Position numbers and translations under genes: made by a program. Below, in pieces: positions 3,130 to 40,424 of a DNA stretch of 58,745 bases (positions are counted from its first letter, which is position 1; each line of letters begins with the position of its first letter). Below the pieces are notes generated by a model. That model had not been told where the DNA came from. It made no database searches and was given only the letters and a program-made list of their open reading frames with translations. The stretch lies in IMG/VR virus record IMGVR_UViG_2531839662_000025; one strand, written 5' to 3'. Source of the DNA: a virus (Duplodnaviria > Heunggongvirae > Uroviricota > Caudoviricetes).

Positions 3130-4314
3130 TTAAACACTCGCCACGTTATACCAGGTGCCATTAATCAGTTTCTGAAGCGGACGGTAATACACGCCGCCGA
3201 TGTTATCTGCCGAATTACTTCCGGTTTCCTGCACATTAATACCGGATAACCCGTGGCCTGAAGGTGAGCGAAATGTCCAGGATACCTGGTTACCTCCCGG
3301 GTTGTAATACATTTCGGAACCATAACGCACATCCTGCACGCCGCCATTTCGCTGCTGATAGCGGGCATCAAAGTTTCCGTAGTTTGATGGAACCATCTGC
3401 CCGTTTACGGCAAACGTTATGCTGTTATCCGTATTCCTCTGACTGTAAAAATGCCAGCCAGAATCATCACCAAGCTCTGCAACAACAGGCCTTGAGGAAT
3501 TTCCCCATAGATTAAATCTTGCACTCTTCGTGGAAGAACTGTCACACGACAGCGTGAACTTTCTTAAATTGCCGGTCGAGAGATTTTCTAATGCCAGCAC
3601 ACCGTTTTTTGTAAAACGAAAGGCGTTGTGTCCCTCTGCAAACACATTAATAACACCGCGTCCGCCCCACTTAAAACCGGTATTGCTATCACAGAGCGTG
3701 AGTGATTTTTCACCCAGATTGTTCTCATTACCGATGCCAATCCTGTCACCAATAACCACATCGCCCTGGCGCAGGTTAATGGAAATGGGCCGCAGTGGGC
3801 CAATATCGCCATTCTCGCCCTGACCTTCACTGGTAGGGATAAGGTGCAGGCACTCTTCCGAGCGACGAAAAATCAGACCAAAGGCTTCGTTGAAAATCCT
3901 CAGCGCATTAACTCCACGGATTTTTAGTTCTCCGGTCATGGTGTCACCATCACGCTGAACGGCATTTTTTGCCTTATCCACCGTAGGTTTTAATCCGAGG
4001 TTTTCAACAGCCTCATCCTTATCTTCCACATCCGAAAGGTTATTTTTTATCAGCAATGCCTCTTCGTTAATCGCACCGCCCACCAGTAATAATATGGCTT
4101 TATATAGCTGATCGTGTTCTTCTTTATTCAGTTCTATCCCGGCTTTCTCAATGACACCACAGATTTCCTCCTGAATGGCATCCCACATGGCACTGTTCAG
4201 CCAGGTGGCAAGGCGTCCTGTGCGAAGATTTCCGTCAGTAAATCCGTTCTTGCCCGGGCCAAACTTATCTTTTACCGCTGTCAGCGTATCAATCCTGTGC
4301 ATCTTCATCCTCAT
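3130..4314 (-). CDS. tail fibre protein
   Basis: 394-aa ORF after the baseplate genes; conserved phage tail-fibre N-terminal region followed by Gly/Asn-rich distal part. Confidence 0.7.
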   Translation of the reverse strand: MRMKMHRIDTLTAVKDKFGPGKNGFTDGNLRTGRLATWLNSAMWDAIQEEICGVIEKAGIELNKEEHDQLYKAILLLVGGAINEEALLIKNNLSDVEDKDEAVENLGLKPTVDKAKNAVQRDGDTMTGELKIRGVNALRIFNEAFGLIFRRSEECLHLIPTSEGQGENGDIGPLRPISINLRQGDVVIGDRIGIGNENNLGEKSLTLCDSNTGFKWGGRGVINVFAEGHNAFRFTKNGVLALENLSTGNLRKFTLSCDSSSTKSARFNLWGNSSRPVVAELGDDSGWHFYSQRNTDNSITFAVNGQMVPSNYGNFDARYQQRNGGVQDVRYGSEMYYNPGGNQVSWTFRSPSGHGLSGINVQETGSNSADNIGGVYYRPLQKLINGTWYNVASV

Positions 4315-4879
4315 CTGGATAGGAAAATAAAACGACAGTATGTGACGGACATAATTTATTAATCACGCACTCCGCAACCGTATCCCCCCACGTCCGGATC
4401 GGTGTGTTGCAGGCGTCCGTGCATGTCTGCCACTGAGCACCGGCATCCACCGGCAACGTCACACGCCAGAAATAACGCCAGCGATCCCCCCATTCCGGAT
4501 CGGGGCTTGCATCCAGATTCTGGAACTGTTCGATCGTCACGCCGGTATATCCCAGCGCCTCAAGCTGATCCAGGAAAAACTGCTCATTTATGCCGCCAGC
4601 TACATTGGCTTTTGCTTCAAGACGTTGCTGGCGCTGGCGTAATGTCTGGGTTCCGACAGGAGAACAGGAATCAGGTAAACCATACAATTTTTCATAACGT
4701 TCAATCAGCTCTGTGGACTGACCGGGATCGATTTCAATCACCAGTTCATCAGCCCGCTGGTGAACACGCACAAGCGATGGAGCCAGACCGTCAAGTACAC
4801 CGTCGGTATCTGACCATGCAGGTCCCGGCGGCATCAGGCCATACAACAATTTTGTATAATCATCCTGTAACGTATCCAT
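4289..4879 (-). CDS. tail protein, Mu gp48/YmfQ-like
   Basis: 196-aa ORF between baseplate J-like gene and tail fibre, the Mu gp48 position. Confidence 0.6.
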   Translation of the reverse strand: MDTLQDDYTKLLYGLMPPGPAWSDTDGVLDGLAPSLVRVHQRADELVIEIDPGQSTELIERYEKLYGLPDSCSPVGTQTLRQRQQRLEAKANVAGGINEQFFLDQLEALGYTGVTIEQFQNLDASPDPEWGDRWRYFWRVTLPVDAGAQWQTCTDACNTPIRTWGDTVAECVINKLCPSHTVVLFSYPDEDEDAQD

Positions 4880-6906: not shown

Positions 6907-7961
6907 CAGAAATCCTCCTCAACATTTTTTTTCTTCCTGCCGGTAACAGGCTCGGGGAGATAAGCATCTGCCGGGCCAACCCGTAATTCAGTCGTCGTGC
7001 CCCGGTCGTCCTGGTTATAGGTGACTTCTGCGATCACCAGTTCATCATTATCAAAATTATTCAGCGGGTCGAAAACGATGACAGATAACCCCGGACGCCA
7101 TAACGCGCCACTGCCCTGCCGCCAGCCCTGAACCGTATATGTTGTCTCACGGGTAAGCGCAGCCCGTTGACGCGCTTCAAATTCACAACGGGCCTTACAG
7201 GTTGCTGTCGTTGCTGTGCCTGACTGCTGAATCAACAAAGGGCGATAACGGGTCACACCACTGTCCTGAATGGTCTGACGTATTGCGGCAATGGTGGCCT
7301 CACCAAAATCATCATCGTTGCCCGGGCGCTGCCCACTGACCTGATATTCAGAAAACCGCTCTCTGATGCTTCTTTCCGTATCACAGGAAAGAATATTCTC
7401 TCCCAGCACCAGTGCTGTCGCCGCTTTGCCTGTTCCGGTTTTCCCCAGAACCAGTCGACCGCATTCATCGTCATAAGCCAGCGTCTGAACCTGCCCCAGC
7501 AACCGGTTAAGACAATCGGCAACGGTTTCGCCGTGTTCCGGCTGGGCATCAATCACCGCTGTCTGCGGCACACCGGCGTCAACAACGGTGATGCCAAATG
7601 GCGCAGCCAGTTCACTGACGATTCTGAGCAGGTTTTTTCCGCTCTGCTGGACTGGCAAAGCAGAGCAGTCAACCAGATCGGCTGTTTTGCTTCGCCCGAC
7701 AATTCCCATGCTGACGCTGCTGGCGTCATAACGAAGCGGTAGAGCCTCCACATATCCGGTGAGCACGGGCTCATCCCCGATAAGCACTTCAACCAGCTCA
7801 CCATTTTTTATCCGGGGCTGATAATCCCGGCTTCCGGGCCAGCGGGTGGTAATGGCAACATTAAAATCCCGGGCAATACGGTTAATGCCCGCACTGATTC
7901 GGACGGATGTCCAGCCGCCCCATTCGCGACCAGAAACCCGAAGTAAAACGGTATTATTCAT
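6906..7961 (-). CDS. tail protein, Mu P-like (gp44-like)
   Basis: 351-aa ORF between N-like gene and baseplate genes. Confidence 0.6.
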   Translation of the reverse strand: MNNTVLLRVSGREWGGWTSVRISAGINRIARDFNVAITTRWPGSRDYQPRIKNGELVEVLIGDEPVLTGYVEALPLRYDASSVSMGIVGRSKTADLVDCSALPVQQSGKNLLRIVSELAAPFGITVVDAGVPQTAVIDAQPEHGETVADCLNRLLGQVQTLAYDDECGRLVLGKTGTGKAATALVLGENILSCDTERSIRERFSEYQVSGQRPGNDDDFGEATIAAIRQTIQDSGVTRYRPLLIQQSGTATTATCKARCEFEARQRAALTRETTYTVQGWRQGSGALWRPGLSVIVFDPLNNFDNDELVIAEVTYNQDDRGTTTELRVGPADAYLPEPVTGRKKKNVEEDF

Positions 7962-9349
7962 CTGACGGGTACCCTTAATGCCCTGATCGGAACAAAGCCC
8001 GGATGGGAGATGGCATTTCGATCCAGGATATCAGTTTCACGGGACGCATCGTCGTACCATGACGCAGCCAGAACAAGCGCAGGAAGAACCTCCGCTGGCG
8101 TTCGCTCTGCGGTCTCCTCCGTCTGAACCAGACGGGCCTGAATATCCCGGTTCAGTTCTGTACGTAATGACGTCAGCTGAAAAAACAGCCTGTCATCCGC
8201 CGCACGCCTGAGCTCCTGTTCAATCGCCGCGTTCAGCGATTCGCGTATGATGGTGAGATTTTCCCGCGTGGGTGGTTGCGCGGTCTCATCCTGCTCTGTG
8301 CTGGCTGCCACGCTGTCAAGCGCCGGATGAGAAACATGAATGATATCGGACTGACGTTCAGTGGAACCACCAACAGCCACAACCGCCTGCTGATTTTTCA
8401 CCAGACTTCCGGGTTGCGGCAGTGAAGTGACCGCCCTTGCAGCCTCGCTGATTGCCGTCGTCCGGATGACTGCAGCCACCAGATTTGTCTGCTGTTTTTG
8501 CCTGACAACCGATGCGGAATCTGTGGGCCACACAGCACGCGGTGCCAGTCCTGGATCCAGCGTAATACCTGACATTGTCGTTATGGACTGCACCAGATCC
8601 TGTGTGTTACCCACCAGTCTGGTTCCTGCCCGCCAGGTATCCTGCAACGTATGCACAAAATCACTGGCAACCGACGGCGGCATCAGAATGACGGATAAAT
8701 CGCCCTGCAGTAGTCTCGCTCCGGCAGAAACAGCCGAATTAACCATTTTGAAAGCTGTCTGAACGGTTCCCAGCATATCGGTTGCCCGGGCAATAACATC
8801 GTTCTGAATAAAGTCCGATATTCCCGCGAGATCAAAATCGCCGAACATGTCTTCAATCAGCTCATCCAGGAATCCGGACGACTCCTCCAGTTTTCTGGCG
8901 GTTGCGGCTCCGGCGACCGGGAATGACAGTTCCCCGCTCTCAACAAACTGAAATGAAACCCGGCACATACGGCCTTCCGTGCTGGAATGAGAAACGGTCA
9001 CCTGTCCGTCAATACAACCCTGCATTTCACCGAACTGCGGATGGATCAGTGTCCCCGGCCCGGCGGTTTCAATCGCGGTAATCAGCCTGTCGCGCTGCTC
9101 TGCGTAATCATCACCAACGAGATACGCATTAATCGTCAGCCGTCGCGTGGCACGCCCGAGATCTTCCGTGTACGGTTTGTCACGGTTTGGGTATTCATGG
9201 ACCTGAACGCGGCGTCCGAACGAACCCTCGTCGCTTTCCACCGAAAACGGAACGCCACGAAATGAAGCATCGTAAAGATTATCGCGCCAATTGATACCTG
9301 AAGATGCAGAAAGGAGTGAAGAAAGAGAAGGTAAAGAAGGTAAGTCCAT
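7958..9349 (-). CDS. tail protein, Mu N-like DNA circularization protein (gp43-like)
   Basis: 463-aa ORF following tape measure in Mu-like order. Confidence 0.6.
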   Translation of the reverse strand: MDLPSLPSLSSLLSASSGINWRDNLYDASFRGVPFSVESDEGSFGRRVQVHEYPNRDKPYTEDLGRATRRLTINAYLVGDDYAEQRDRLITAIETAGPGTLIHPQFGEMQGCIDGQVTVSHSSTEGRMCRVSFQFVESGELSFPVAGAATARKLEESSGFLDELIEDMFGDFDLAGISDFIQNDVIARATDMLGTVQTAFKMVNSAVSAGARLLQGDLSVILMPPSVASDFVHTLQDTWRAGTRLVGNTQDLVQSITTMSGITLDPGLAPRAVWPTDSASVVRQKQQTNLVAAVIRTTAISEAARAVTSLPQPGSLVKNQQAVVAVGGSTERQSDIIHVSHPALDSVAASTEQDETAQPPTRENLTIIRESLNAAIEQELRRAADDRLFFQLTSLRTELNRDIQARLVQTEETAERTPAEVLPALVLAASWYDDASRETDILDRNAISHPGFVPIRALRVPVR

Positions 9350-9362
9350 ACTGTCTCCACTA

Positions 9363-9390
9363 TAAAAAAACCGCCAATTTCTGGCGGCTT
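9363..9390 (-). terminator. rho-independent terminator after lipoprotein moron
   Basis: Minus-strand hairpin (CCGCCA/TGGCGG stem) followed by U-run, directly downstream of the 9396-9878 gene. Confidence 0.55.
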
Positions 9391-9395
9391 ATATA

Positions 9396-9878
9396 TTAAT
9401 CATCACTAATATCTTTCATATTCAATTTGCAATTTTCGTAGGTCACTCCAGACTCGCCATTAACATTAACTCCAGCTCTGATATTCCCGTTTTCTTTTAC
9501 ATCTACAAAAAACTGGCCTCTTGGCATCTTGAACACAAATGTAAAACCAACGGTATCTGAATCAAAATCATCATCTTTATATATTGGGATCAGATGTGTC
9601 ATCGTCGCTGGTGATGCATTGTTTGCAAAATCAAATACACCTATACTTTTGCCGAATTCATAAGAAGCTTTTCTCAATATAATCGCACCGCTGGCAGAAG
9701 GGGATGGGCACGATATCCTCAGTTGTCTGAATCCATCTGTATCCAAGTCAACATCATTATATGCAGATGCTTTAACGTTATTAACAAATCGTGAAGCAAT
9801 CTCCGCATTTGTTAGTGTTTTCGCCTGAGCACAGCAAGAGGTTAATATTGCAACTGTCATTAAAAATGGCTTTATCAC
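9396..9878 (-). CDS. predicted secreted lipoprotein (moron in tail module)
   Basis: 160-aa ORF with N-terminal signal peptide and lipobox (LTSC); AT-rich relative to flanking tail genes; own terminator. Confidence 0.6.
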   Translation of the reverse strand: MIKPFLMTVAILTSCCAQAKTLTNAEIASRFVNNVKASAYNDVDLDTDGFRQLRISCPSPSASGAIILRKASYEFGKSIGVFDFANNASPATMTHLIPIYKDDDFDSDTVGFTFVFKMPRGQFFVDVKENGNIRAGVNVNGESGVTYENCKLNMKDISDD

Positions 9879-9945
9879 AAAACAAACTCCATTGTTAGCA
9901 TGTTACGCGATAATTTTGCCTCATCTCTCACCACAAAAAAAGAAT

Positions 9946-11895
9946 TCACCTTTTAAATGGAGAATACCCAACGTCATGGGTGATTTTCATAAAGGGATCG
10001 CCTGTTTTCGGCAAATCGATGACACGCATTCCCGGCGGCGCGTTGTCAAACGTCACCTTAAGTTCGCTGCGGGTTGCCGGTGACGATGAAAGGCTTAACA
10101 GTTGATTCCTTTCCAGTGATACATTCGGGATGTAGCGTTTATCTGGAGATAAATACCCATCACCACGTGGCATCTGCCATCCGGTCATGTCATAGACAAA
10201 ATCATGGAACTGTTTGCCCCACTCGTCGAACTTATCATTCAGACCAAATCCACTATTCAGTGCATCAGCCACAAAATTTTTAACAAGCCAGGGATGTTCT
10301 TTTTCAAACTCCTGCGCCATCATGCCCAGTTCAAGCAATCCACCAATCAGACTGATCTTACCAAGCCCCTTTAATTTCAGCGCCGTTTTTCCTGCCGCCG
10401 TTGTCCATTGATTCTGGGCGACTGTTGCTGCACGAATGGCTGCCACCGCTTTCACACCAATATACAGGGCAGAAACCGTTGCTATTGTTTTTACTGCCTG
10501 TTCCCATCCCCCCATTGCCCTGACAACCTGATCAACCTCCTGCCAGACTTTTTTCACAACCGGCCCGACCGTTTCCCAGTTGTCAATAATGAGATACGCC
10601 CCCGCTACCAGTAACGTAATGAGTCCCTTTGCCGGTGTCATATTCATCACGCTACCCATGATTTTTGTTATGCGTGTCAATGTGCCAATCGCCACGCCCA
10701 TCGTCAGTAATGCCGCACCAGTTTTCGCGATGGTTTTTACGACATCAGGATTTTCTCTGACAAACGTGCGCACTTCTTCCAGAAAAGGCTTCATCTCTTT
10801 TATGCCTTCATTGATTGAAGGCAGGAAGGTTTCCCCCAACGTGGAAGAAATCGCATTGATCTGGTTCTGCAGCAGCAACAACTGATTTTCCGTCGTCGCG
10901 GCACGGGCGGCATATTCTTTCTGCATTGAGCCGCCATACTGCTGCGCATCCGCCACACGATTAAAATTGGTTCGCAACAAATCCAGATTCGTGAGCAGCG
11001 GCGCAATGGCTCCCAGAGACTCCTTCCCGAACAGCGCATTAAGCACAGCAGCCTGTTTTTCTTTCGGCACTTTCGCCAGAGAATCCAGTACGTGCAGCAT
11101 GGCCCCACGGGCGTCTTTCTGCATATCCGCCGCCAGTTTTTTCGGGTCAATGCGCAACAGGCGAAGCGCTTTTTTCTGCGATTTGGTGGCAGAATTCCCC
11201 GCAGTCAGCGACAGCATAAAATTCTTTATCCCCGTCGCAGCAATTTCTGATTCCACCCCCATTCCGGCAATGGTTGCCCCCATTGCGGCAATCTCTCCGG
11301 AGGCCACACCCGCAACACTGCCTAAAGGGCCAATACGGGTCACAACATCAGAAATCTTTTTCGCACTCGCAGGACCGGTATTACCAAGATAGTTAATCTT
11401 GTCCGCAAGCCCTGCCACCTCTCCCTGTGTCAGTTTAAAGGCAGTGCGCCACTGTGCCATCATCTGACCGGATTCTTCCGCCGTGGTGTCAAAGGCCACC
11501 CCCATCTTCACGGCGTCGTCAGTAAACTGCATCAGCTCGTCACGGGCGATGCCAGCCTGACCACCCGCCGCCACGATTTCGGCGATACCTTCCGCCGACA
11601 TGGGCAGTTCTGTTGACAGGTCGCGCACCTGTTCCGTCATTGCCTTAAACGCTTCCGGCGTATCCAGACCATCCACCACTTTCCGGACATCCGCCATTTT
11701 TGATTCAAGGGCAATGGCAGATTTGACCGGGAGCGCCAGCGCCCCCAGTACTGCGGTTCCGGCACCCGCTGCGCCCAGTGACAGGCTGGCAAACTCCTTT
11801 TTAAAACCTTTCAGCTGGCGCTGCATTCCCTTCAGCGGTGCCGATACCTTATCCACGGCAGTGATGATCGCCTTCAGCTGAAAACTGTCAGCCAT
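9946..11895 (-). CDS. tail tape measure protein
   Basis: 649-aa Ala/Gly-rich ORF between tail chaperone and N-like gene. Confidence 0.8.
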   Translation of the reverse strand: MADSFQLKAIITAVDKVSAPLKGMQRQLKGFKKEFASLSLGAAGAGTAVLGALALPVKSAIALESKMADVRKVVDGLDTPEAFKAMTEQVRDLSTELPMSAEGIAEIVAAGGQAGIARDELMQFTDDAVKMGVAFDTTAEESGQMMAQWRTAFKLTQGEVAGLADKINYLGNTGPASAKKISDVVTRIGPLGSVAGVASGEIAAMGATIAGMGVESEIAATGIKNFMLSLTAGNSATKSQKKALRLLRIDPKKLAADMQKDARGAMLHVLDSLAKVPKEKQAAVLNALFGKESLGAIAPLLTNLDLLRTNFNRVADAQQYGGSMQKEYAARAATTENQLLLLQNQINAISSTLGETFLPSINEGIKEMKPFLEEVRTFVRENPDVVKTIAKTGAALLTMGVAIGTLTRITKIMGSVMNMTPAKGLITLLVAGAYLIIDNWETVGPVVKKVWQEVDQVVRAMGGWEQAVKTIATVSALYIGVKAVAAIRAATVAQNQWTTAAGKTALKLKGLGKISLIGGLLELGMMAQEFEKEHPWLVKNFVADALNSGFGLNDKFDEWGKQFHDFVYDMTGWQMPRGDGYLSPDKRYIPNVSLERNQLLSLSSSPATRSELKVTFDNAPPGMRVIDLPKTGDPFMKITHDVGYSPFKR

Positions 11896-11979
11896 GCTTC
11901 ATCTCCTCGTTAATGCGGACGGCCTCGGCTTCCAGTTCTGTAAACTGCGAAATAGCCACCCGTCGCAGCTCCAGTGGAT

Positions 11980-12309
11980 TCAGTTTCCAGAACCAGGCAA
12001 CATTGTAGAGTCGTTTCCGGAGGTGCTTCCCGTCTCCGACTGGGTAAAAAAACGCAGGATCTGCATGCTGGTCTTAAAAATATCCAGTTTTGCCATCTGC
12101 GCCGCCGATGAACGCGGGATCCCCGCCAGCAGCGGGATATATTTCAGTGCCACCTGGCTGTCCAGTTTTATACTGCCCTCACCGGAAATAATGAAAGGAA
12201 AACCCAGGGCCTCGATTTCGTCATACGTGGGTTCACGCAACTCCAGCACATGCAGCGTTTCGTTATGCGCTGTCACCGGTTTTTTTAAAACAATTTCTGT
12301 CACGCTCAT
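11980..12309 (-). CDS. tail assembly chaperone (Mu gp41-like)
   Basis: 109-aa ORF between tail tube and tape measure. Confidence 0.5.
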   Translation of the reverse strand: MSVTEIVLKKPVTAHNETLHVLELREPTYDEIEALGFPFIISGEGSIKLDSQVALKYIPLLAGIPRSSAAQMAKLDIFKTSMQILRFFTQSETGSTSGNDSTMLPGSGN

Positions 12310-12665
12310 TACTGATATCCTCCCTCTTCGCCGTGAAATTCAAGATCTGCCGTACCTTCTTCGGCATTATGGTTTGCTTCGCCATGCAGCCAGGCCGCCG
12401 AAAGCACATACACCATGCCGTTTGCCAGCTCGGCAGTAATCGTCATCTGGTCTGAGGTGGTAATTTTGTCGACCGGAAAATTTTTGGGCACTTTAAACGT
12501 GCCCTTAACGTAAGGTGACCGCCAGGTCTCCTTGTAATCCACATCACCAGCCATGCCGACGACATCATCCCGGACATTGGTGTTCATCGGCACTTCAATG
12601 CCACCTGTCAGCGATAACTGCTGACCATCCACTTTAAAAAAACAGGTTCCGGCGATCTTTGCCAT
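12309..12665 (-). CDS. tail tube protein
   Basis: 118-aa ORF immediately after sheath gene. Confidence 0.7.
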   Translation of the reverse strand: MAKIAGTCFFKVDGQQLSLTGGIEVPMNTNVRDDVVGMAGDVDYKETWRSPYVKGTFKVPKNFPVDKITTSDQMTITAELANGMVYVLSAAWLHGEANHNAEEGTADLEFHGEEGGYQ

Positions 12666-14161
12666 TATGCTGACTCCTCTGAATACTGGAGACGGAACTG
12701 GTTAACCACCGCAAAGACACGTAACTGGTTAACATAATCCGGCGGGAACAGCGTGTTCAGTCGGTTCGGGTTATCCGCATCACGTTCAACTATCAGATAC
12801 TGTTTAAACAGATCGTAATTTTCCACAATACCGGCACGCTCCATCTGACGATATGTCGCCAGAAGCTCCCCTTTGATAACGGCAGGAGTAACAATCGCCT
12901 GCCCAGGACCAAAACGGGTACCATCATTTGCCAGCTTGTGGCGTCCGTACTTGCTTGTGATGACCGATTTCAGTTTGCGAAGAACATATGCGCTGGTATG
13001 CAGTGTTTCACTGTCCAGATAGCTGTTGTCTGCCACGCCATATGCATTCTTTTTGTATGTGGTTACGGAACGCTGGATCCGCAACGTGCCGCCTTCCACA
13101 TAAGCCGTCGCCACGCCGTGAGATAAAAGGGTCTGCTGCTCTGTCATGATGAATCGCTTACCTTTCGGTGCCGGAAGCATCCCCACCAGTTCCCCCGTCT
13201 GTGTCGGACGGGCCGGATCATTGCGGATAAATACCGCTTCACGGGCAAGGCGACTGGCAACCAGTTCATCGACAGGCGACTGGGTTTCTTTTTCGTAACC
13301 GGCAAGCGTGATATGTTGCTGATTATGCATATCTCCGGCATCAACCAGCTCTGACAGCGTTCCCAGTTTTGCGGTATAGACATGCCCGTATAACTGGCGC
13401 GCATAACTCCAGCGACCGCTGCTGTCATTCATTTCGGTCATCATCATATTGATGGAGGCGGCATCGTTGAACGGCAGACCGATAAAGTCGAATGCCTCAT
13501 CGCCCATAGCAGCAACAGCGGCAGTAAGATCAGGCGCGCCACTACCCGCAGTTCCGGCTTCCGTCACAACCTGAAGCCCCGCAGGCAGAATCTCACCACC
13601 ACCAGAACCATAATAATTCAGGCAGACAGGCAACTCGTTACCATACAGCCCCTTATGGCGGGCAGTCAGCGTCACCACACCTGCATCAGATGACGCCGCA
13701 AACGGCAGGGTGATAACCCCGTTTACCGCTTCCTTAATCGCGGTGGCAACCGCAGTAGCATCATCGCCATTCACCACAGGCACCTGTACACGGTAGCGCC
13801 CGACATACAGACTCAGGGTGCCGCTTTCCTCTGCTTCTCCGGTAACTGTCACCCTGACCGTCGCCGCCGCCCCTTTGGCTTCCGGTACTGCAATAACATA
13901 CAGTTCACCGAAAGGATCTGTCTGACGGTAGACGTCAACCATACGCGCCAGCTGGCTCCCGGCCCCACAAATCTGACGGGCATAATCTGCCGACGGCATC
14001 AGCACCAGGCTGTTAACCTCAATGGCGGCATCGTTGCTGGCATGCCCGATCAATAATGCAGGCGCGCTGGTCACTGCTGTATTTGCCGCAGAATTGTCCA
14101 TCTCGGCGTAAAACAACGGCACCAGCGTATTCGACGGAACAGCACTAAAACTTATTGTCAT
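12665..14161 (-). CDS. contractile tail sheath protein
   Basis: 498-aa ORF; Mu L-like sheath size and position. Confidence 0.85.
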   Translation of the reverse strand: MTISFSAVPSNTLVPLFYAEMDNSAANTAVTSAPALLIGHASNDAAIEVNSLVLMPSADYARQICGAGSQLARMVDVYRQTDPFGELYVIAVPEAKGAAATVRVTVTGEAEESGTLSLYVGRYRVQVPVVNGDDATAVATAIKEAVNGVITLPFAASSDAGVVTLTARHKGLYGNELPVCLNYYGSGGGEILPAGLQVVTEAGTAGSGAPDLTAAVAAMGDEAFDFIGLPFNDAASINMMMTEMNDSSGRWSYARQLYGHVYTAKLGTLSELVDAGDMHNQQHITLAGYEKETQSPVDELVASRLAREAVFIRNDPARPTQTGELVGMLPAPKGKRFIMTEQQTLLSHGVATAYVEGGTLRIQRSVTTYKKNAYGVADNSYLDSETLHTSAYVLRKLKSVITSKYGRHKLANDGTRFGPGQAIVTPAVIKGELLATYRQMERAGIVENYDLFKQYLIVERDADNPNRLNTLFPPDYVNQLRVFAVVNQFRLQYSEESA

Positions 14162-19553: not shown

Positions 19554-19564
19554 AATGACCTCGG

Positions 19565-20290
19565 TTAAAGCGAGCGAATACCAACGCTGACCAGATGCTC
19601 AGACAGATCCGGCTCCGGTTCACCGCCATTGACCAGCATCCGGCTCATTGCTGTAAACATCGCAACAGGACCGTCGATTTTGGCTTCCGGCGTGGATTTA
19701 TTCGGGAAGATATTGTTGTTTTTGTCCGGTTTCACCGTAACGTTAGACATCATCCAGTTCATGACCGGGTGATTGCTGTGGTGGAAACGTCCGGCATAGA
19801 CCAGTGATTCCGTTTCCTTCATGGCCTCTGACAGATTGCGGACCGTCTGCGGAACTTCCACCAGCGGTATACCTTCTTCAGCCAGCGCCAGACTGAACTG
19901 CATTGCGCTCCACGGGTCAAATCCCAGTTCCCTGAGGTTTTCACCGCCAATCCATTCCAGTAAGTCACTTTTTATCTGAGCATGATCGATAACATCACCA
20001 TCCGTCAGGATGAGCTTATCCATCTCCGCCCACTTCCGGTAAAGTTCTGCCTGCTGCCGCGAGCATCGCTCCAGCCGTCCTTCCGGAAGCCAGAATTTAA
20101 AATCAGCATGAACATGTCCGTTATCGGTTCGCCAGAGTTTTGCCGCCGCACAGATATCAATCTTATGAGCAAGGTCGACGCCGACCCACATGGGATATGT
20201 TTTCAGCTCATGTTGTGGAGCAATGTATTCGCACTTCTCCCACTTAATCATATCCATCCAGGCAGATTCGGCAGTGACCCACACATTCAT
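19565..20290 (-). pseudogene. terminase large subunit, C-terminal (nuclease) fragment of the host prophage
   Basis: 241-aa ORF aligns by eye with the C-terminal third of the intact TerL at 20817-22478; N-terminal two thirds lie 15 kb away at 35283-36303. Confidence 0.8.
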
Positions 20291-20293
20291 GTG

Positions 20294-20309
20294 TTTGGTA
20301 AGAATATTT
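20294..20309. repeat. putative att core (left junction of satellite)
   Basis: TTGGTAAGAATATTTC; imperfect direct repeat of TTGGTAAAAAAATTC at 35276-35290, located at the terL break point. Confidence 0.5.
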
Positions 20310-20376
20310 CAAGTTTTTTAAAATCACCTGTATATCAATCATTTAACATGAAAAAACAGTCTTTATAAATCATCGA

Positions 20377-20397
20377 GCAATACACAGCGCAATACAC
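20377..20397. repeat. arm-type repeat GCAATACACAGCGCAATACAC
   Basis: Near-identical tandem motif also at 35125-35145 just inside the other satellite end. Confidence 0.5.
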
Positions 20398-20582
20398 GTA
20401 TCTGTATTGTTTTAATGCTGATACACACCGTTTTTTGATACAGTGATTCGACCTACCATCGCGAAGCATTTTTTATTTCTTGTGTGTAACAATCTGACGA
20501 GGTGAGCACTCAAAGAGATAAGAGGCAGTAGAAATTTCGATCCCCCCTGAATGCAATTTTTCGTATATATATACAAAACAGT

Positions 20583-20741
20583 GCGGGTTATGCGGGTTAG
20601 CGGGTTATCTTCGCGTGCTAAGTATTTTTTACTCTTTAATATCAATACGTTAAAAAACAACGTATCTAAATATCAGCCAGAATGTAACCCGCAAGACATT
20701 CAAAATAACCCGCAAACACCACTCAAATAACCCGCAAAAAC
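20583..20741. repeat. iteron cluster (GCGGGTTAT motif), three direct plus three inverted copies around an AT-rich spacer
   Basis: Direct copies at 20584, 20593, 20602; inverted copies at 20686, 20706, 20728. Confidence 0.7.
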
Positions 20742-20816
20742 ATCCCTGAAAGTGGGTGCCGATAATACTGAAAATTTATTCCATTAAATGAGCATTATCC
20801 TCTCTCATCCATTCCG

Positions 20817-22478
20817 TTACACACCATCAAACGTCGCAAGCCGCTCTTTGTGGCTGTCGCTCATATCGAATGCAAATTCCTCATGCTCTGCCTGGAATGT
20901 GCCAAACGCCATCAGCGCCGCAACGCTCGGGTCTATCTTGTTGGATGATTTTTTCTTGTTCGGCTTGATATTGGCGTTCGCGTCACTCTGCATCACAACA
21001 TTACTCATTGACCAGGCCAGCACCGGATCACCACGATGCACAATCACCTTCCGGTTAACAAAAACTTCGAACGATTTCGCCGCCGGACTGAAACGAAGGT
21101 ACGTTTGCGGGAACGGCTCCACCTCAAATCCTGCGCCCTGTAGCTGCGTCCTCAGGTGCGTGGCGTTCCATGTATCGAAACCCACCAGCCTGATATTGAA
21201 ATTCTCTGCATCCGCCATGATGTCATCACGGATACGGTCATAATCAATGCAGTCACCCGGTGTTGTGCGTATCCAGCCCGCCTTTACCCACTGGCGATAG
21301 ATGGCGCGGTTTTTATTGGCGGGGTTCTGTAGCTGAAATTCCGGCAGATAGTGACGGGAAACCAGCATAATCTTTTTACCGACCGGAAAGGCATAGCACA
21401 CGCTGGAAATATCGCTGGTTGATGATAAGTCCAGCCCCGCGTAGCACTCCTGCCCGTATAAATCCGCCTCCGCGAACGTTCCGGCGCACTCCGCCCATGC
21501 ACCGTTACCCATCCACGGCGTGGCCCCCTGACACCAGATATTGAATCGCTTGGTGAGCATTTCCACCCACTGCGACGGAATACCCCGCGCTTTCTGGATG
21601 GTTGAGGCCAGTTTTTCACGATCGACGGAAACATCGATATTGGGATTCGCCTTTATCCACATCGCCGGATCGTCAACCTCGCTTTCATCATCCAGCTCGT
21701 AAATCAGCACGAACATGGATTCGTTCACCTCTTCACCATCCAGTATCTGGCAGCAATAGTCGTAGTGTTGTTTACAGGCTGAAACAACGTTGCTCCCCGA
21801 TGTGGTGATGGCAAATAATAACCCCTCCGGACGCGCCCCCATTCCCAGTTCAAGCGCGGAATAAACCCCGTTGTCAGGGTGCAGGTGATATTCATCCACA
21901 ATGGCAAGACTCGGGTTTGTACCTTCAATGGTTGCCGCTTTTGCTGCCAGTGGCTTTAACAGGCTGTTGGTTTTCGGGTGTATCACCTTGTGTGCCTGAA
22001 TATTTACCCGCTTTCGCAACGGTCGGGATAAAAGGCACATCTGACGCGCATCATCAAACACGATCCGCGCCTGATCACGACTCACGGCGGCGGTGTAAAT
22101 ATCCTGCTGCCCGTTTTCCATAACCAGAAACCAGTTAGCCAGGATAGCGGCGACCGTGGATTTGGCATTTTTTCGCGGCACTTCAATGAATGCGCTGGTG
22201 TATTTGCGCCGTCCGGTGGCCTTAACCTTAAAGCCCAGGATGCACGCAAAGGCGAACTGCTGCCACGGCTCCAGCTCAATGGGGCTACCGCGCATTGCGC
22301 CTTTTACGTGCGGACACACCCTGGAAAAGGCAATAAACCGCTCCACGACCTCCGGATCGAACGTGTAAAGGGGGTTTTCAAGGTCAGAAAAATACCGTTT
22401 AACGGCCTGTTTCAGTCGTTTACAGGCCGTAATTTTGCCGTTTTTTACGCCTTCTGCGTACTCATGCCAGGCGGTCAA
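20817..22478 (-). CDS. terminase large subunit (satellite-encoded, intact)
   Basis: 553-aa ORF with ATPase and nuclease halves. Confidence 0.85.
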   Translation of the reverse strand: MTAWHEYAEGVKNGKITACKRLKQAVKRYFSDLENPLYTFDPEVVERFIAFSRVCPHVKGAMRGSPIELEPWQQFAFACILGFKVKATGRRKYTSAFIEVPRKNAKSTVAAILANWFLVMENGQQDIYTAAVSRDQARIVFDDARQMCLLSRPLRKRVNIQAHKVIHPKTNSLLKPLAAKAATIEGTNPSLAIVDEYHLHPDNGVYSALELGMGARPEGLLFAITTSGSNVVSACKQHYDYCCQILDGEEVNESMFVLIYELDDESEVDDPAMWIKANPNIDVSVDREKLASTIQKARGIPSQWVEMLTKRFNIWCQGATPWMGNGAWAECAGTFAEADLYGQECYAGLDLSSTSDISSVCYAFPVGKKIMLVSRHYLPEFQLQNPANKNRAIYRQWVKAGWIRTTPGDCIDYDRIRDDIMADAENFNIRLVGFDTWNATHLRTQLQGAGFEVEPFPQTYLRFSPAAKSFEVFVNRKVIVHRGDPVLAWSMSNVVMQSDANANIKPNKKKSSNKIDPSVAALMAFGTFQAEHEEFAFDMSDSHKERLATFDGV

Positions 22479-22818
22479 GCTCGTCCTCTTCCTCTGTTTC
22501 CGGTGGATTTCTGCGGCGACTTACCGGGTCAAAACCCAGCAAAGAAGCCATTTTGATCATTATTCTTTCCGCGTCAGCCTTTGCGCTCAGGGCGGGGTTT
22601 CTGCTCTCGCTGCCCTGACTGTTAACAATGCTGAACCCGCGCGTGGCAAGGTCTTCGACGGCTTTGCGGTATATGGAGTAGTTAACGCAATACAGCTCCA
22701 GATTGCTCCAGTCGGCGGGGGTAAGGTCTTCCCGTCCGGAAAGCTGGCGCGATTTTTCCTTCCACTGCCTGACCGCGATTTCATCCAGGTAAGCGGGGGC
22801 TTTTGGTGGTCTTGCCAT
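22462..22818 (-). CDS. terminase small subunit (P27-family-like)
   Basis: Track ORF 22462-22959; likely start MARPPKAP at 22818; upstream of TerL. Confidence 0.65.
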   Translation of the reverse strand: MARPPKAPAYLDEIAVRQWKEKSRQLSGREDLTPADWSNLELYCVNYSIYRKAVEDLATRGFSIVNSQGSESRNPALSAKADAERIMIKMASLLGFDPVSRRRNPPETEEEDELDRLA

Positions 22819-23106
22819 GTTCTTTTTTCGCCCAATTATTTTCAAAAAAAATCCCGTGCACAAAAATTTGAGGAGGCGGTCGGTGTCCGGCAGGGACGGT
22901 TTCGTCCTGAAAACCTCCCCCACCCCCTCTGACAGCCTCACCAGCGATTGCGAAAACATTCCATGACCTCGCGGTCACGGTCGGTTAATCGCTTCGCTGT
23001 GGTGCGTTCTGTGCGCCCTGTCCTGTTAGCTTTGTGCCCTGTCTCCTGTGTCTTCCATAAGTCACGCTGCCTTATCAGTCCACGTATCAGCCTGTTTTGC
23101 TCCTGT

Positions 23107-23547
23107 TCAGTCATCATCGCCATACATCCAGTCGTTACGATGTGCCGCCCGTTCTTCCTGCTCGCGATACATACCCGCCTTACGGTTCGCTTTCGTGGCT
23201 GGATCTTCCCGTGTCGTCTTACGGTTGTGGCACGTCTGGCACAATGCCTGGTGGTTCCACTCAGGCCAGAAGAGAACATCACCGCCGCCATTGATGGGAA
23301 TGATGTGATCCACCACAAGAGCTGGCGTATAAATCCCCTTAGCCAGACAACGCACGCATAACGGGTTTTTGCTCAGGTACAGGGCGCGGTATTTGTCCCA
23401 CTGTCGGGAATACCCGCGCGCGCGGCGGTGTCCCCGTCTGGCATCCTCTGCACGCCATGCAGCCCGCCTGTGCTCTTCACACTTGCCGGACTTCACGCGC
23501 TTATTACAGCCCGGCTCAGTGCATCGCCTTAATGGTTGCCACGGCAT
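23107..23547 (-). CDS. HNH endonuclease (packaging-associated)
   Basis: 146-aa ORF with Cys and His motifs, adjacent to TerS as in HK97-like cos phages. Confidence 0.75.
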   Translation of the reverse strand: MPWQPLRRCTEPGCNKRVKSGKCEEHRRAAWRAEDARRGHRRARGYSRQWDKYRALYLSKNPLCVRCLAKGIYTPALVVDHIIPINGGGDVLFWPEWNHQALCQTCHNRKTTREDPATKANRKAGMYREQEERAAHRNDWMYGDDD

Positions 23548-28696: not shown

Positions 28697-28820
28697 TGCG
28701 GGTTATAATCGCACTTTTGCGGGTTATAACTGCCGTTTTGCGGGTTACGTGCGGGTTATTGATTTCCTTTTTATTCATACAGTTAATGCACTTATACACA
28801 GGATAACCCGCATAACCCGC
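28697..28820. repeat. putative satellite replication origin: GCGGGTTAT iterons at 21-bp spacing plus inverted copies
   Basis: Direct copies at 28697, 28718, 28739, 28751; inverted at 28803, 28812; immediately downstream of primase. Confidence 0.65.
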
Positions 28821-28843: not shown

Positions 28844-30964
28844 TTAATCTTCTGCCTCAGGCTGGAACATCAGCACGTAAAAAACATGCTGCTTCCCCCC
28901 AATTTTGCCGAGCGCCTTTTTCTTGTAACGGCGATCGTTACCCGCTTCCAGCATTCCGGCAGCACTCAACGCGCGGGCAAAGTGAGACGGATTAAATCCC
29001 TGTGCTATCTCACCCTCAAATACATGCGGGAACGTGTAAAAACGGAACTCGTCATCTTCGTTTCTGATACTCCCCTTTCTGTATCCGGCAAGCTCTTTAA
29101 TCGGTAAATCACGCTCGTCGGTGTTGGGCCACGGAAGGTATCTGCTGAATCCGAACGACGCTAAAAAAGCCTCTGCCTGTTCAACCATCTGTTTAAACTC
29201 CCTGTTACCCGTGCCGAACTCCTTCACCCAGGCATTAAAATTATGCTGAATGGCATCGCGGCACGCCTGAACATCCCAACCAGTAATATGGACGGAAAGC
29301 ACCAGCGCCGACTCCAGCATGGCGAATCGTTCCCCCACACGGTGAACCTGTTCGCCGTAACTCTCCGGTATCAGGTTGCGCCACCGTTCACGGCATGCCC
29401 TTACCGTATCCTTTGCCTCCTGCTGGTGGTCTGCCAGCCATTTAACCCATTCACGCCCCGCCGCCCCGTGATTTTCTGTCCAGGCATCCTTTAACGCGTC
29501 TGCGTGTGCCTTTCCGGTGCTGTATTCGTGAAACTGCGTGGCTTTTTCCATTGGCACGTTAAGCAGGCGGACAAGCTGCCCCGCCTTGACTTTTATCCCC
29601 TCCGTTTTGAGGAATGTCTCAACGTCCATTTCTCCGGTGCTGATTGCCACCGTGCGCCAGTGTTTGATCTCCCTGTTGCCGCCGTCCTTCGCCCCCTGTA
29701 ATTTCCCCGAACCGTTAAACAGCGTATAAGCCGACGTGGACACTTCCCGCGCGTTTCCGGCCTGACCTATTTCATCTAGGGGTAATAGCCCGTCATTGTG
29801 CGCCTCTGCCTCGTTGGCGATGCCTAACGCTGTACCGTACCAGGTCAGCCGTTGCGCGTCCGGCTCTCCCCATAAACTGGATGCGATGTTCTGTGTGGTG
29901 GTTTTCCCTGCCGATGACTGTTCGAAAAGATGTACCCCGAAGCCGTCAGCGCCCACCAGCCCGATTAATGGTGCAGATAACGATACCGCCACACCCAGCA
30001 TCATGGACGGATTACCACCAGCCAGCCGCGCAACGGTATCGCGCCAGCCCTCCGCCGTTCCTGCCACGGAATAACCATTAACAGCAGCCGTTTTTCCGGT
30101 AAACAGGACTGGCTTTTCGCAATCACCAATGACCGAACCGTCCGGCATGATGTACGCGCCAAAATGCCAGCCCGTTGTTGTGCTTAACTGCCATTCCTCA
30201 TGGTTTCCGCTTAACTGCATCCAGTCAGCCAGGATAGCCCTGTATTTGCCGTTGGTTGTCACGTTCAGGCCGTGGTCTTTCAGCAACCGCCAGCCGTCAC
30301 GGTCGCCAATGCCACCACATGGGATCGCCATTGTGATGACTTCATGGTTTGCTGGCTTTTTCCAGCGCATCACGCGGTAATGCTCTTTACCGATCGTCCC
30401 CGTTCCCAGTAGTTCAAGCGGAGAACATAACCACGTCTCAGGCCGGATAATTTCGCCTGACTGCTTGTCCACTTTTGGCGTTACCCAGAAAACACCATCG
30501 GCGCGGCTTTCAACGCGGGGCTTTAATTCATCATCGCCCTGGCTTTCTGTGATTTTTTTCTTTAAGGGCAACACCAGACTTTCCCCGCGCTCGTATTCGT
30601 CTTTCAGTCGGGCAAGCTGTGGTGTCCAGTCCTCCAGTAAATCGCCGTTCTCGTCACAAAAACAGGCTTCCTTAACACCAGCCACTGCCAGCAGGGTTTC
30701 AATCTGTAGCGCCAGTTTGTCATCCAGTTTTCCGGCACGTCTGACGATGGCGCGTGACCGACCATCATCCACAATACGCAGGTTTTCCAGATTACCCAGG
30801 TCACGCCGTCCGAGATAAACAGGTGGTATTTTGTCGCCGCGCTTTCTGGCTTCTCCGCCCTGCATGTAATGCTCTGCATGGCTGTATGCGTCATCCCCCG
30901 CAAAAATCACTGCATCCTCGCCTTTATCTTTCGGTAACAGTTTTACGTTCGGTGCCAGTTTCAT
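28844..30964 (-). CDS. primase/helicase (P4 alpha-like replication protein)
   Basis: 706-aa ORF with Walker-type NTPase region (SSAGKTT). Confidence 0.7.
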   Translation of the reverse strand: MKLAPNVKLLPKDKGEDAVIFAGDDAYSHAEHYMQGGEARKRGDKIPPVYLGRRDLGNLENLRIVDDGRSRAIVRRAGKLDDKLALQIETLLAVAGVKEACFCDENGDLLEDWTPQLARLKDEYERGESLVLPLKKKITESQGDDELKPRVESRADGVFWVTPKVDKQSGEIIRPETWLCSPLELLGTGTIGKEHYRVMRWKKPANHEVITMAIPCGGIGDRDGWRLLKDHGLNVTTNGKYRAILADWMQLSGNHEEWQLSTTTGWHFGAYIMPDGSVIGDCEKPVLFTGKTAAVNGYSVAGTAEGWRDTVARLAGGNPSMMLGVAVSLSAPLIGLVGADGFGVHLFEQSSAGKTTTQNIASSLWGEPDAQRLTWYGTALGIANEAEAHNDGLLPLDEIGQAGNAREVSTSAYTLFNGSGKLQGAKDGGNREIKHWRTVAISTGEMDVETFLKTEGIKVKAGQLVRLLNVPMEKATQFHEYSTGKAHADALKDAWTENHGAAGREWVKWLADHQQEAKDTVRACRERWRNLIPESYGEQVHRVGERFAMLESALVLSVHITGWDVQACRDAIQHNFNAWVKEFGTGNREFKQMVEQAEAFLASFGFSRYLPWPNTDERDLPIKELAGYRKGSIRNEDDEFRFYTFPHVFEGEIAQGFNPSHFARALSAAGMLEAGNDRRYKKKALGKIGGKQHVFYVLMFQPEAED

Positions 30965-33681: not shown

Positions 33682-33915
33682 TCAGGGTTTCCATTCACCT
33701 TTTACCCATTCCAGCACCTCAGATAAGCGCCAGACTTTTGTTTGTGGGCCAATACATATTTTTCGTGGAAATTTTCCTTCCTTTTCAAGTAACGATCTGT
33801 GTCTCCTGCCAAGAGCGGTTAACCATGCACATTCATCTTCCTTAATCATCCTGTCGATTGTTTCATCATTTTCAAGTTCTTCACGCGTAACTATTTGAAT
33901 CATTACTGTCACCAC
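33682..33915 (-). CDS. AlpA-family regulator / excisionase-like
   Basis: 77-aa HTH ORF next to integrase. Confidence 0.55.
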   Translation of the reverse strand: MVTVMIQIVTREELENDETIDRMIKEDECAWLTALGRRHRSLLEKEGKFPRKICIGPQTKVWRLSEVLEWVKGEWKP

Positions 33916-35104
33916 TAATTTGCTTATTCAGATAGTCGTACCACCAGTTCATAGCTTCTTTTTTTCTGTCCATATACTGGCTTCTGTTATAAACCCCGGC
34001 AACACCGCCTAATGTGTGCCCAAGCAACTGTTCAACCACATTATGTTCAAAACCATGATCACTTAGTTTTGTGGCAAACACTCTTCGCATATCATGCGCC
34101 GTCCATTTCTCCGAGTGTTTCATCCTTTTCCATGTCTTACCGATAGTTACGCTTGCCGTACACTGACGCATATCAAACCCAATCACATTTTCTTTGTTAC
34201 CTGTTATTTTTTTTAACGTAACTAACCAGTTAAACATGCCATCAGGAATCGGTCTGATTATTTCCCTGCCATTTTTGCTATGATCAGCGGGAACGCGCCA
34301 TAATTTCTTATCAAAATCCCACTCTACCCAGGACGACAGTAATACTTCTGACAGTCGACAACCAAAAACTACCAGGAAACGTAAAATAATTCGGTTTTCA
34401 TATGATAATTCGTGATTGTCATAATCAGTATTAATACTTCGCCATAAATCTCTGATTTCATCATCTGTTAAAACCCTGCTTCTTCGCGCAGACTTTTTTC
34501 CCACATCACAGACCTCAAGATCATCAATTTCATGACTAATCGCGTATTTTCTTACCCTACAAAATTTAAGCGCCTGTTTTGATATACGCAACAAAGCTCC
34601 GGCCTGTACAGGTGCTACTTTTTTTATTTTGTCAAAACACTTAATCCACATAGATATAGAGCAATCACTAAGTGGTACATGACCAATCACCGGATAAATA
34701 TGTTTACCAAAGCACTGCCTGATATGTTCTGCTCCCCTACGCTTATCCATTGCATAATTATCAAGCCAGTATTCAAGTGCCTCACGAACGGTAACAGGTT
34801 GCAAGGTGGCTTCCCGTTCAATTTTTATCTGAATCCGTGGATCTCTGCCCTCCGCAAGCCAGGTTCGACACTGATCGCGCATCTCTCTCGCTGATTTGAG
34901 ACTCAGATCAGGATATTTTCCAAGTGTCAGCCAGATGGGCGCGGTTCCCCTTCCCGCCAGTCTGTAAAAGAAAACAAAACTAACACATCCGTATTTACTG
35001 ACCCGTACCGAAAGCCCGTTACCATCAGCGATGGTTTCCTGCCTCTCACTCCTGCGTCCAAGCAGGGAACGAAGTTTTTTATCGCTCAGTTTGTTTAGCG
35101 CCAT
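33881..35104 (-). CDS. tyrosine integrase (P4-type)
   Basis: Track ORF 33881-35140; likely start MALNKLSDKKL at 35104; P4-type N-terminal arm-binding pattern and C-terminal catalytic region. Confidence 0.8.
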   Translation of the reverse strand: MALNKLSDKKLRSLLGRRSERQETIADGNGLSVRVSKYGCVSFVFFYRLAGRGTAPIWLTLGKYPDLSLKSAREMRDQCRTWLAEGRDPRIQIKIEREATLQPVTVREALEYWLDNYAMDKRRGAEHIRQCFGKHIYPVIGHVPLSDCSISMWIKCFDKIKKVAPVQAGALLRISKQALKFCRVRKYAISHEIDDLEVCDVGKKSARRSRVLTDDEIRDLWRSINTDYDNHELSYENRIILRFLVVFGCRLSEVLLSSWVEWDFDKKLWRVPADHSKNGREIIRPIPDGMFNWLVTLKKITGNKENVIGFDMRQCTASVTIGKTWKRMKHSEKWTAHDMRRVFATKLSDHGFEHNVVEQLLGHTLGGVAGVYNRSQYMDRKKEAMNWWYDYLNKQISGDSNDSNSYA

Positions 35105-35124
35105 GTGATTTATAACCCGTTTTT

Positions 35125-35145
35125 GCAATACACAGTGCAATACAC
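35125..35145. repeat. arm-type repeat GCAATACACAGTGCAATACAC
   Basis: Direct repeat of the motif at 20377-20397. Confidence 0.5.
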
Positions 35146-35275: not shown

Positions 35276-35290
35276 TTGGTAAAAAAATTC
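35276..35290. repeat. putative att core (right junction of satellite)
   Basis: TTGGTAAAAAAATTC at the point where the host terL reading frame is lost. Confidence 0.5.
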
Positions 35291-36303
35291 ACCCGCGCAG
35301 AGACCTGCTCCTTCGCTTTTTTCGCCAGACGACGCAGATCATCCCAGCGTTTACAGATGCCCAGGCCAGGATTCGCTTTCTGCCAGACCGTTTCATCAAA
35401 CGGATCATCTCCCTCATCGAGCGTGTAAATGATCGCAAAGTAGGAGTCGTCTTTTACCGCGCCCTCCACGTCGCTGTTATAGCCTCGCAATACCTTAATG
35501 GCGTAATCGCGCTGCTCGTAGCAAATCCCTTCCTTGTTAAAGCCAGCCGTGGTGATGCCAAATAACAGAGACTGCAGACGGGCACCGGTTGCCGTTTCCA
35601 GAACGTCCCACACGTCACGGGTTTTATGAGCATGCAGCTCATCAATAATGGCGCAGTGGATGTTCAGACCGTCCAGGTTGTTTGCATCCGAGGAAAGCGG
35701 TTCAAATTTTGATGCGCTCTGCTCCTGGTAAATCGCCAGCTTGTTGAAATCAAACAACCGCCCGAGTGTCGACCGGGCTTTTCTGACCATATTTTTGGCG
35801 TCTTCAAACACAATTCTGGCCTGGTCACGCGTGGTTGCGGCTGAATACACCTCAGCACCGCCTTCACCATCTGCCCCCGTCATATACAGGCCGATACCCG
35901 ATGACAGGGTTGATTTTGCGTTTTTACGGGCGACTTCGTTGTACGCCGTCCGGAACCGGCGCACCATCACCGGACGTCCGCTGCCATCGCTGCGTATGAC
36001 AACTTCCCCGGTCTCTTCATTGACCAGCGGAATGACAAAACCAAAAATATTAATGAGGATAAATACATGCCAGTCCATCAGTTCAATGGGCTGGCCTGCC
36101 AGCGCCCCTTTTACATGGGGCACAAATTTGTAGAAATTCAGGATGTGCTGCGCACGGGGTTCACTGAAATAAATCCCCCGCTCTTCGCCGTACTTCAGAT
36201 CATCAAGAAAACGCTGGCAGGCCAGACGGACAAATTCGCCAGCGACAATTTCTCCTGCAACAACACGTTCGGCGTAGCGGATCCCGTCAGCCACTTTTGC
36301 CAT
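35283..36303 (-). pseudogene. terminase large subunit, N-terminal (ATPase) fragment of the host prophage
   Basis: Track ORF 35110-36303: first ~345 aa are TerL-like, then the frame runs into satellite sequence and becomes low-complexity. Confidence 0.8.
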
Positions 36304-40270: not shown

Positions 40271-40345
<75 letters not shown>

Positions 40346-40348
40346 ATA

Positions 40349-40424
<76 letters not shown>

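Follow-up and report, generated by a model that had tools for sequence, protein, structure and literature searches.

The window, meaning the whole 58,745-bp stretch of DNA that was analyzed, contains a 14,981-bp capsid-forming PICI (cf-PICI) located within the terL gene of a prophage. The satellite genes are all on the minus strand, from 35140 down to 20817, and are arranged in the order integrase, regulators, DUF927, unit A, SSB, PerC, major capsid, prohead protease, portal, connectors, HNH, TerS, TerL and unit B, with gene identities taken from Pfam, PHROG and RefSeq annotation. The assignment as a cf-PICI follows from the presence of int, regulators and pri-rep together with the element's own capsid, protease, portal, connector, HNH, terS and terL genes and no tail or lysis genes, and the gene order is the same as that of the prototype cf-PICI EcCIEDL933 (bioRxiv 10.1101/2022.09.08.507074). 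Units A and B are clusters of one 9-bp iteron, GCGGGTTAT, and their coordinates and those of the surrounding features are collected in Table 1.

Table 1. Features of the two iteron clusters and of the satellite element (positions in the window).
Feature	Position	Strand	Description or basis
att core TTGGTAA, B-side junction	20295..20301	.	empty-site reconstruction
Origin unit B	20553..20741	-	phased iterons x3, AT-rich spacer, tandem inverted iterons x3, (TA)n palindrome (minus-strand sense)
Imperfect 32-bp palindrome GCAATTTTTCGTATATATATACAAAACAGTGC	20553..20584	.	repeat search; corresponds to the T4-G-(TA)n-C-G-A5 box
B tandem iterons GCGGGTTAT / GCGGGTTA(g) / GCGGGTTAT	20583..20608	+	motif scan
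B spacer, candidate unwinding region	20609..20683	.	75 bp, 70.7% A+T
IHF-consensus match TATCAATACGTTA in B spacer	20640..20652	+	consensus match only
B phased iterons GCGGGTTAc, GCGGGTTAT, GCGGGTTAT	20684..20735	-	motif scan
Satellite terL, last gene before unit B	20817..22478	-	Pfam TerL_ATPase, TerL_nuclease; RefSeq
Origin unit A	28698..28820	-	+ strand: four iterons, AT-rich spacer, two tandem inverted iterons
Putative initiator, 706-aa DUF927 primase-helicase, SaPI Rep / Cch type	28844..30964	-	Pfam DUF927 1.1e-45
Satellite tyrosine integrase	33881..35140	-	Pfam Phage_integrase, Arm-DNA-bind_3
att core TTGGTAA, integrase-side junction	35276..35282	.	empty-site reconstruction

Over 400 bp the reconstructed empty site and intact prophage terL genes agree at 100% identity, and this match and the two att cores define the length of the element, with cluster B starting 281 bp away from the junction. 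Of 5426 complete E. coli genomes, 905 have a place that covers at least 80% of the empty site, and the occupied junction is found in 34 genomes. The host prophage has an HK97-type head and a contractile tail, with the two halves of its terL at 19565-20301 and 35276-36299, and the att site inside this gene is occupied by no prophage, yet is itself prophage DNA. The satellite splits the terminase gene of the resident prophage, inactivating terL until excision, while needing only helper tails, and a satellite seated in this manner deserves separate study. The same int gene is located beside the N-terminal half of terL in two related loci (L012 and L013). Near the B-side junction GCAATACAC is present twice, 11 bp apart (20377-20396), and the 11-mer GCAATACACAG is found again at 35125-35135, in the 5' end of the int ORF, ~150 bp inward from the integrase-side att core; these repeats are probably integrase arm-type sites. 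An IHF-consensus match is also present in the att arm (20333-20345). Beyond the prophage terS/HNH region, genes for tRNA-Gly(TCC) and tRNA-Thr(TGT) are located on the minus strand at 40271-40424. The window is 100% identical to E. coli UMNF18 (L001) over 20200-21000; RefSeq calls the DUF927, terS and HNH genes of UMNF18 frameshifted pseudogenes and the window ORFs (DUF927, 28844-30964; terS, 22462-22959; HNH, 23107-23547) are intact, reflecting either a different strain or assembly or else assembly errors.

The DUF927 protein matches PHROG 1139, "DNA primase" (3.9e-176), and its core matches PDB entry 8tch_A, "Pathogenicity island protein" (E 6.5e-14), as well as the Cch helicase, matches that identify it as a relative of the SaPI Rep and Cch self-loading helicases. 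At the C terminus there is a weak match, below the cut-off, to Pfam HTH_56 (the Cch helix-turn-helix), and no Pfam family is found in the N-terminal 170 residues. An AlphaFold2 model built from a 25-sequence alignment has a mean pLDDT of 49.5, with values below 50 at the C terminus, and is too poor for confirmation of a winged helix or for a fold search. Unit A begins 24 bp past the stop codon of this protein, immediately 3' of the primase-helicase gene, which is the canonical place of a PICI origin. It is composed of four direct iterons (steps of 21, 21 and 11 bp), a 43-bp spacer of 69.8% A+T and then a tandem pair of inverted iterons. A perfect DnaA-box consensus, TTATACACA, is located in the A spacer adjoining the tandem iterons (28792-28800), but the box is kept only in the GCGGGTTA lineage and is ruled out as a general origin feature because it occurs in only 4 of 58 composite origins. 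The crr region of P4 also starts with TTATCCACA.

Cluster B has its iterons between 20583 and 20735, with three direct copies starting at 20583, 20592 (GCGGGTTAg) and 20600 (steps of 9 and 8 bp) and three inverted copies at 20684 (GtAACCCGC), 20705 and 20727 (steps of 21 and 22 bp, or about two helical turns). The first-pass annotation had described three direct and three inverted copies of the primase-side motif around an AT-rich spacer of ~75 bp, lying after the terL stop and ~280 bp from att, and this description is confirmed, with its coordinates correct: the end of the terL ORF, at 20817, and the nearest iteron are 81 bp apart. Both clusters hold six copies when up to one mismatch is allowed. 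The exact GCGGGTTAT occurs 9 times on the two strands of the window compared with an expected 0.38 and a largest value of 2 in shuffled sequences, and all nine copies fall inside A or B, so that the motif is not dense throughout the element. The A+T content of the B spacer stands out against 50.8% for the whole element, and the second least stable 40-bp stretch of the 15-kb element lies inside this spacer, with the seventh in the spacer of A. Read in one direction, cluster B is the mirror image of cluster A. The Gram-negative PICI origin has been defined by two opposed iteron sets flanking an AT-rich region (PMC6092414, PMC9371898), and B, in keeping with its first description as an origin-like array, has this full anatomy of opposed iterons around an easily melted spacer. 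In position it differs, being located not directly 3' of rep or pri-rep but 8.1 kb from the initiator stop and past terL.

The arrangement was compared across 160 related loci, comprising 80 IMG/VR loci with a DUF927 protein 58-100% identical to that of the window and a further 80 loci from one genome per species (loci are referred to by L numbers). A contiguous two-unit pattern, '++-----++---', is present in 53 of the 80 IMG/VR loci and in ~44 of the 80 species genomes. In this fixed pattern of ~12 iterons the initiator stop is followed by two tandem iterons, an AT-rich spacer and four or five phased iterons, after which come two phased iterons in the opposite sense and, beyond another AT-rich spacer, three in tandem. 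It corresponds to unit A directly followed by unit B, ~280 bp together and forming mirror-image units. The iteron sequence varies with lineage (at least a dozen types) and the architecture is constant, indicating that the usual origin of the DUF927 replicon family is the contiguous A-then-B pair. The earlier expectation that a second array should not occur is therefore overturned, with about 100 of the 160 loci having the contiguous two-unit origin and B appearing as the relocated second unit. No description of a two-unit pairing or of a split PICI origin was found in the open-access papers searched.

Cluster B aligns with unit B of the contiguous origins that share its iteron (L024, L028, L031, L034 and L038). 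The aligned region spans both the phased and the tandem iterons, together with the conserved half of the spacer between them and the box that follows the tandem set, with the unit B sequence running TTGATATTAAAGA.TAAAAAATACTTAGCACGCGAAGA, tandem iterons and then CACTGTTTTGTATATATATACGAAAAATTG. The half of the spacer that is kept in both split and contiguous relatives is the one proximal to the tandem iterons. The gene order is pri-A-B-ssb in L024, L034, L038, L044 and EcCIEDL933, with the relatives carrying a small ORF between B and ssb, compared with pri-A-ssb...terL-B-att in the window. EcCIEDL933, a cf-PICI whose replication after induction has been shown experimentally, has a contiguous origin, also built on the GCGGGTTAT iteron, with nothing following terL. 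On this alignment cluster B is identified as the orthologue of unit B of the contiguous origins; its identity is settled with good confidence, and its mechanism is what we infer. The contiguous form is present in 138 E. coli genomes and the direct terL-B junction in 29 complete E. coli genomes. As a separate feature, EcCIEDL933 (L082) carries four copies of a ~25-bp repeat (GGCGCGGTAACTkgyTGATAtT...) downstream of terL at 19560-19990, none of which is found in the window; they may be arm sites of the integrase or else bind the terminase.

In the window the block from ssb and perC through the capsid and terminase genes separates A from B, with the result that B adjoins attP. On the 14,981-bp excised circle the two units are ~8.1 kb apart in one direction and ~6.9 kb in the other. 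The split form of the window's lineage is found in 15 IMG/VR loci, with an extra 0.5-1.1 kb of sequence between terL and B in four relatives (L010, L014, L027 and L037). Seven loci of the species-level sample have their second unit 2.2-9 kb downstream of the first; they come from Escherichia albertii (L083, iteron CTTGTCCC), Rosenbergiella (L102), Serratia (L107 and L111), Lonsdalea (L118), Chimaeribacter (L120) and Pantoea (L137). Inspection of the sequences of L083, L107, L118 and L120 shows a distal unit built from the element's own iteron with the anatomy and orientation of the window's B, and in L102, L111 and L137 the strand pattern and the flanking box agree with B. In L107 and L118, direct repeats of 29 bp and 19 bp flank the element and enclose the distal unit, as does the only repeat in L120, a weak one of 14 bp; the unit lies 0.8-2.9 kb from the right end of the element (for L120 measured on that weak repeat). 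The distal unit of L083 has CTTGTCCC iterons like its own proximal unit, yet the right flank is that of the window, TTTTGTATATATATACGAAAAATTGCATTCAGGAGGGG. In L086 and L151 the units are 160-400 bp apart, a spacing that looks like an intermediate state.

Conservation of B was assessed over 11 loci of the split type, among which both the upstream context and the att end come in three different versions. Invariant columns make up 98% of the iterons, 64% of the rest of B and 25% of the flanks, indicating that B is under selection. The ~100 bp separating unit B from the att arm (20440-20552, beginning CATTCAGGGGGGATCGAAATTTCTAC...) are also partly conserved among split-type elements despite different integrases and att sites, including in L083 of E. 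albertii. This segment shows no RNA family and no conserved fold, with a consensus RNA structure of -11.6 kcal/mol and a positive covariation term, and an Rfam scan of 20200-20900 returns only a meaningless miRNA match (E 0.26). Within each element both units share one iteron, and the iteron type shifts with the C-terminal ~60 residues of the initiator over six types. For example, the initiators of L022 and L023 are 89% identical to that of the window over residues 1-672 but have a different C terminus and GGGACAAC iterons. This covariation, seen in the split elements as well, is the evidence that the units carry iterons cognate to their initiator, as in a PICI-type origin unit.

The two units appear to be non-equivalent, with a (TA)n box and an IHF site specific to B. 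Directly beyond the tandem iterons of unit B comes the T4-G-(TA)n-C-G-A5 box, which A-only loci lack. Among 32 loci sampled from different iteron types, 26 have a (TA)n run after these iterons and the others a degenerate version of it. The IHF consensus, WATCAANNNNTTR, has only three matches in the window, including those in the B spacer (20640) and the att arm (20333), and in 58 contiguous origins it gives 20 matches compared with ~1.6 expected, 15 of the 20 being at the equivalent place in unit B. B is kept in near-identical relatives and is absent from the available sequence of L003, L007 and L008, which have primases 97-99% identical and the same unit A, so that B is not indispensable for the window's initiator. 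Further loci with unit A only are L020, L021 and L075, together with ~18 single-unit elements in other genera. No element with B only is seen among the 160 loci, and B may therefore be an auxiliary unit rather than an origin by itself.

From these features B is probably one part of a split origin, namely its distal unit for initiator binding and melting; binding, melting and the effect on replication are what we infer from the sequence. After induction, the C-terminal helix-turn-helix or winged-helix domain of the initiator would bind the iterons of B, one set of three being in phase along a single helical face and the other three being tandem and in the opposite sense. IHF would probably bend the B spacer, and the AT-rich spacer and adjoining (TA)n palindrome would be melted and the helicase loaded as proposed for SaPI origins. 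B would act in cis, either as an auxiliary unit cooperating with A via initiator-mediated looping, like crr and ori of P4, or as a second initiation site. Within the split-origin reading an auxiliary, A-dependent role is somewhat favored over an autonomous second origin, given the lack of B-only elements and the distinct features of B. A more specific proposal, drawn from the analogy with P4 crr and held only tentatively, is that B could be an orientation-constrained long-range cis element that loops with A to license or boost firing.

The closest functional analogue of this arrangement appears to be P4, the resemblance being in design and not one of P4-family membership. In both cases a small satellite replicon has two clusters of one short iteron several kilobases apart, one cluster being directly 3' of the primase-helicase gene and one adjoining attP. 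The alpha protein of P4 reportedly binds both regions, with crr said to be required in cis. In the annotated GenBank record of P4, crr (4291-4590) is located directly after the alpha gene and beside attP, 4.5-5 kb from ori (9086-9809), and in each crr repeat a T/A-rich spacer separates a tandem pair of iterons, 9 bp apart, from inverted iterons. There is no detectable homology between the window's initiator and P4 alpha, with BLASTP giving only a 54-residue match (E 0.007), and the domains differ, P4 alpha having Zn_Ribbon_Prim, Toprim_3, D5_N and Pox_D5 compared with DUF927 only in the window's initiator. Other differences are that in P4 the primase-adjacent cluster is also the attP-adjacent one, that the units are contiguous in relatives of the window's element, and that the A-only relatives argue against a universal requirement for the distal unit.

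Initiator-binding clusters a gene or kilobases apart, with initiator-mediated looping, are also known from the R6K alpha/beta/gamma origins. Bipartite chromosomal origins (H. pylori oriC1/oriC2 and B. subtilis oriC) are similar in having separated clusters that cooperate by looping, described for H. pylori in PMC3479198. These systems differ in their initiators, pi and DnaA, and have neither a satellite context nor a mirror-image two-unit design. Among known systems, the PICI/SaPI origins share the DUF927 initiator family and the anatomy found in both A and B, with A in the canonical place; EcCICFT073's pri-rep-ori segment drives plasmid replication (PMC6092414). The differences are that the origin here is a pair of two non-equivalent units and that the second unit is ~8 kb off and att-proximal, not beside the initiator gene.

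A different role for the same iterons would be negative control, in which B titrates the initiator or handcuffs with A, limiting or timing replication without initiating itself. The iterons of A borne by B at a distance would suit such a sink, as does the observation that A alone appears enough in related satellites. Satellites replicate explosively after induction, without copy-number control, and this counts against the sink. Titration and handcuffing are well established for iteron-bound plasmid initiators, and the plasmid inc arrays (P1 incA and F incC) are likewise extra iteron arrays outside the minimal origin that bind the same initiator (PMC5397158); these arrays act negatively and have no unwinding spacer, whereas B has the full anatomy of an origin unit. 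A pure sink needs iterons only, and the fixed-length AT-rich spacer, the IHF-consensus site and the (TA)n palindrome, which B also keeps across many lineages, are left unexplained. In most relatives B moreover abuts A, within the origin region that has been described and tested (PMC6092414). The sink proposed by the first-pass annotation thus agrees with the shared iterons but not with the remainder of the unit, and is unlikely.

The same (TA)n box raises the question of transcription. B, or its tandem-iteron/(TA)n end, might be an initiator-controlled promoter or operator that drives the ssb-perC-late operon in contiguous origins and here fires toward att, into int on the excised circle. The orientation of B relative to the genes is constant in all split lineages examined, and in contiguous origins a Shine-Dalgarno sequence and ATG follow the (TA)n box by ~20-30 nt, a distance to the next start codon that makes a promoter role possible for that part. 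A scan of 20250-20900 for sigma-70 promoters and terminators finds nothing in B on either strand. The TATATA of the box has no conserved T at position 6 of a -10 hexamer, the -35 position falls inside iterons that vary between lineages, and the box is conserved in the window and in L118 though no gene follows. The phased iterons and the spacer are also left unexplained, and a promoter role for B is rather improbable.

The rearrangement might also have been a by-product of modular PICI exchange, with B left behind by the rearranging recombination as a relic that has no function. The existence of A-only relatives is compatible with this. However, a relic would not be expected to keep near-invariant iteron columns between poorly conserved flanks across three upstream contexts and three att ends. 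The split is moreover found again in other genera that use other iterons, the distal copies having changed each time to match the element's own initiator, which makes a relic quite improbable. A packaging (cos/pac) or centromere-like partition site, suggested at first by a repeat array lying so close behind terL, is highly improbable, given that orthologous B units adjoin the primase in PICIs that have no terminase or capsid genes (L024 and L028-L036) as well as in EcCIEDL933 and in cf-PICIs with 92-100% identical TerL (92-93% in L038 and L044), that B lies 0.5-1.1 kb beyond terL in four relatives, that the repeats, being the iterons of the initiator, follow the initiator and not the terminase, so that B does not belong to a terminase module as a cos or pac site would, and that no ParA/ParB-like gene is annotated in the element.

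PICI origins have so far been treated as one compact iteron/AT-rich block beside rep. The split-origin reading of B, taken with the contiguous relatives, suggests that the origin of the DUF927 family is built from two non-equivalent units, of which B carries an IHF-type site and a (TA)n palindrome. The repeated separation of these units by 2-9 kb, with neither lost, provides a ready-made test of whether the Rep helicases need both, and split elements also allow communication over a distance as in P4 and the role of the B-specific palindrome to be tested. Annotation tools that search only beside rep miss half of the origin in split elements, and engineered satellite vectors derived from the window's lineage may need both units. 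If B does loop with A over a long range, a bipartite long-range origin would have arisen in a second, non-homologous family of satellite primase-helicases. The cargo between A and B, here the capsid/terminase module, would then be a cassette exchangeable by homologous recombination at A and B among satellites with a common initiator. In Yersinia pekkanenii (L104), three iteron clusters of the same type are present within 6 kb (7152-13212), an arrangement that suggests satellites in tandem or nested within one another, or else duplication of the origin.
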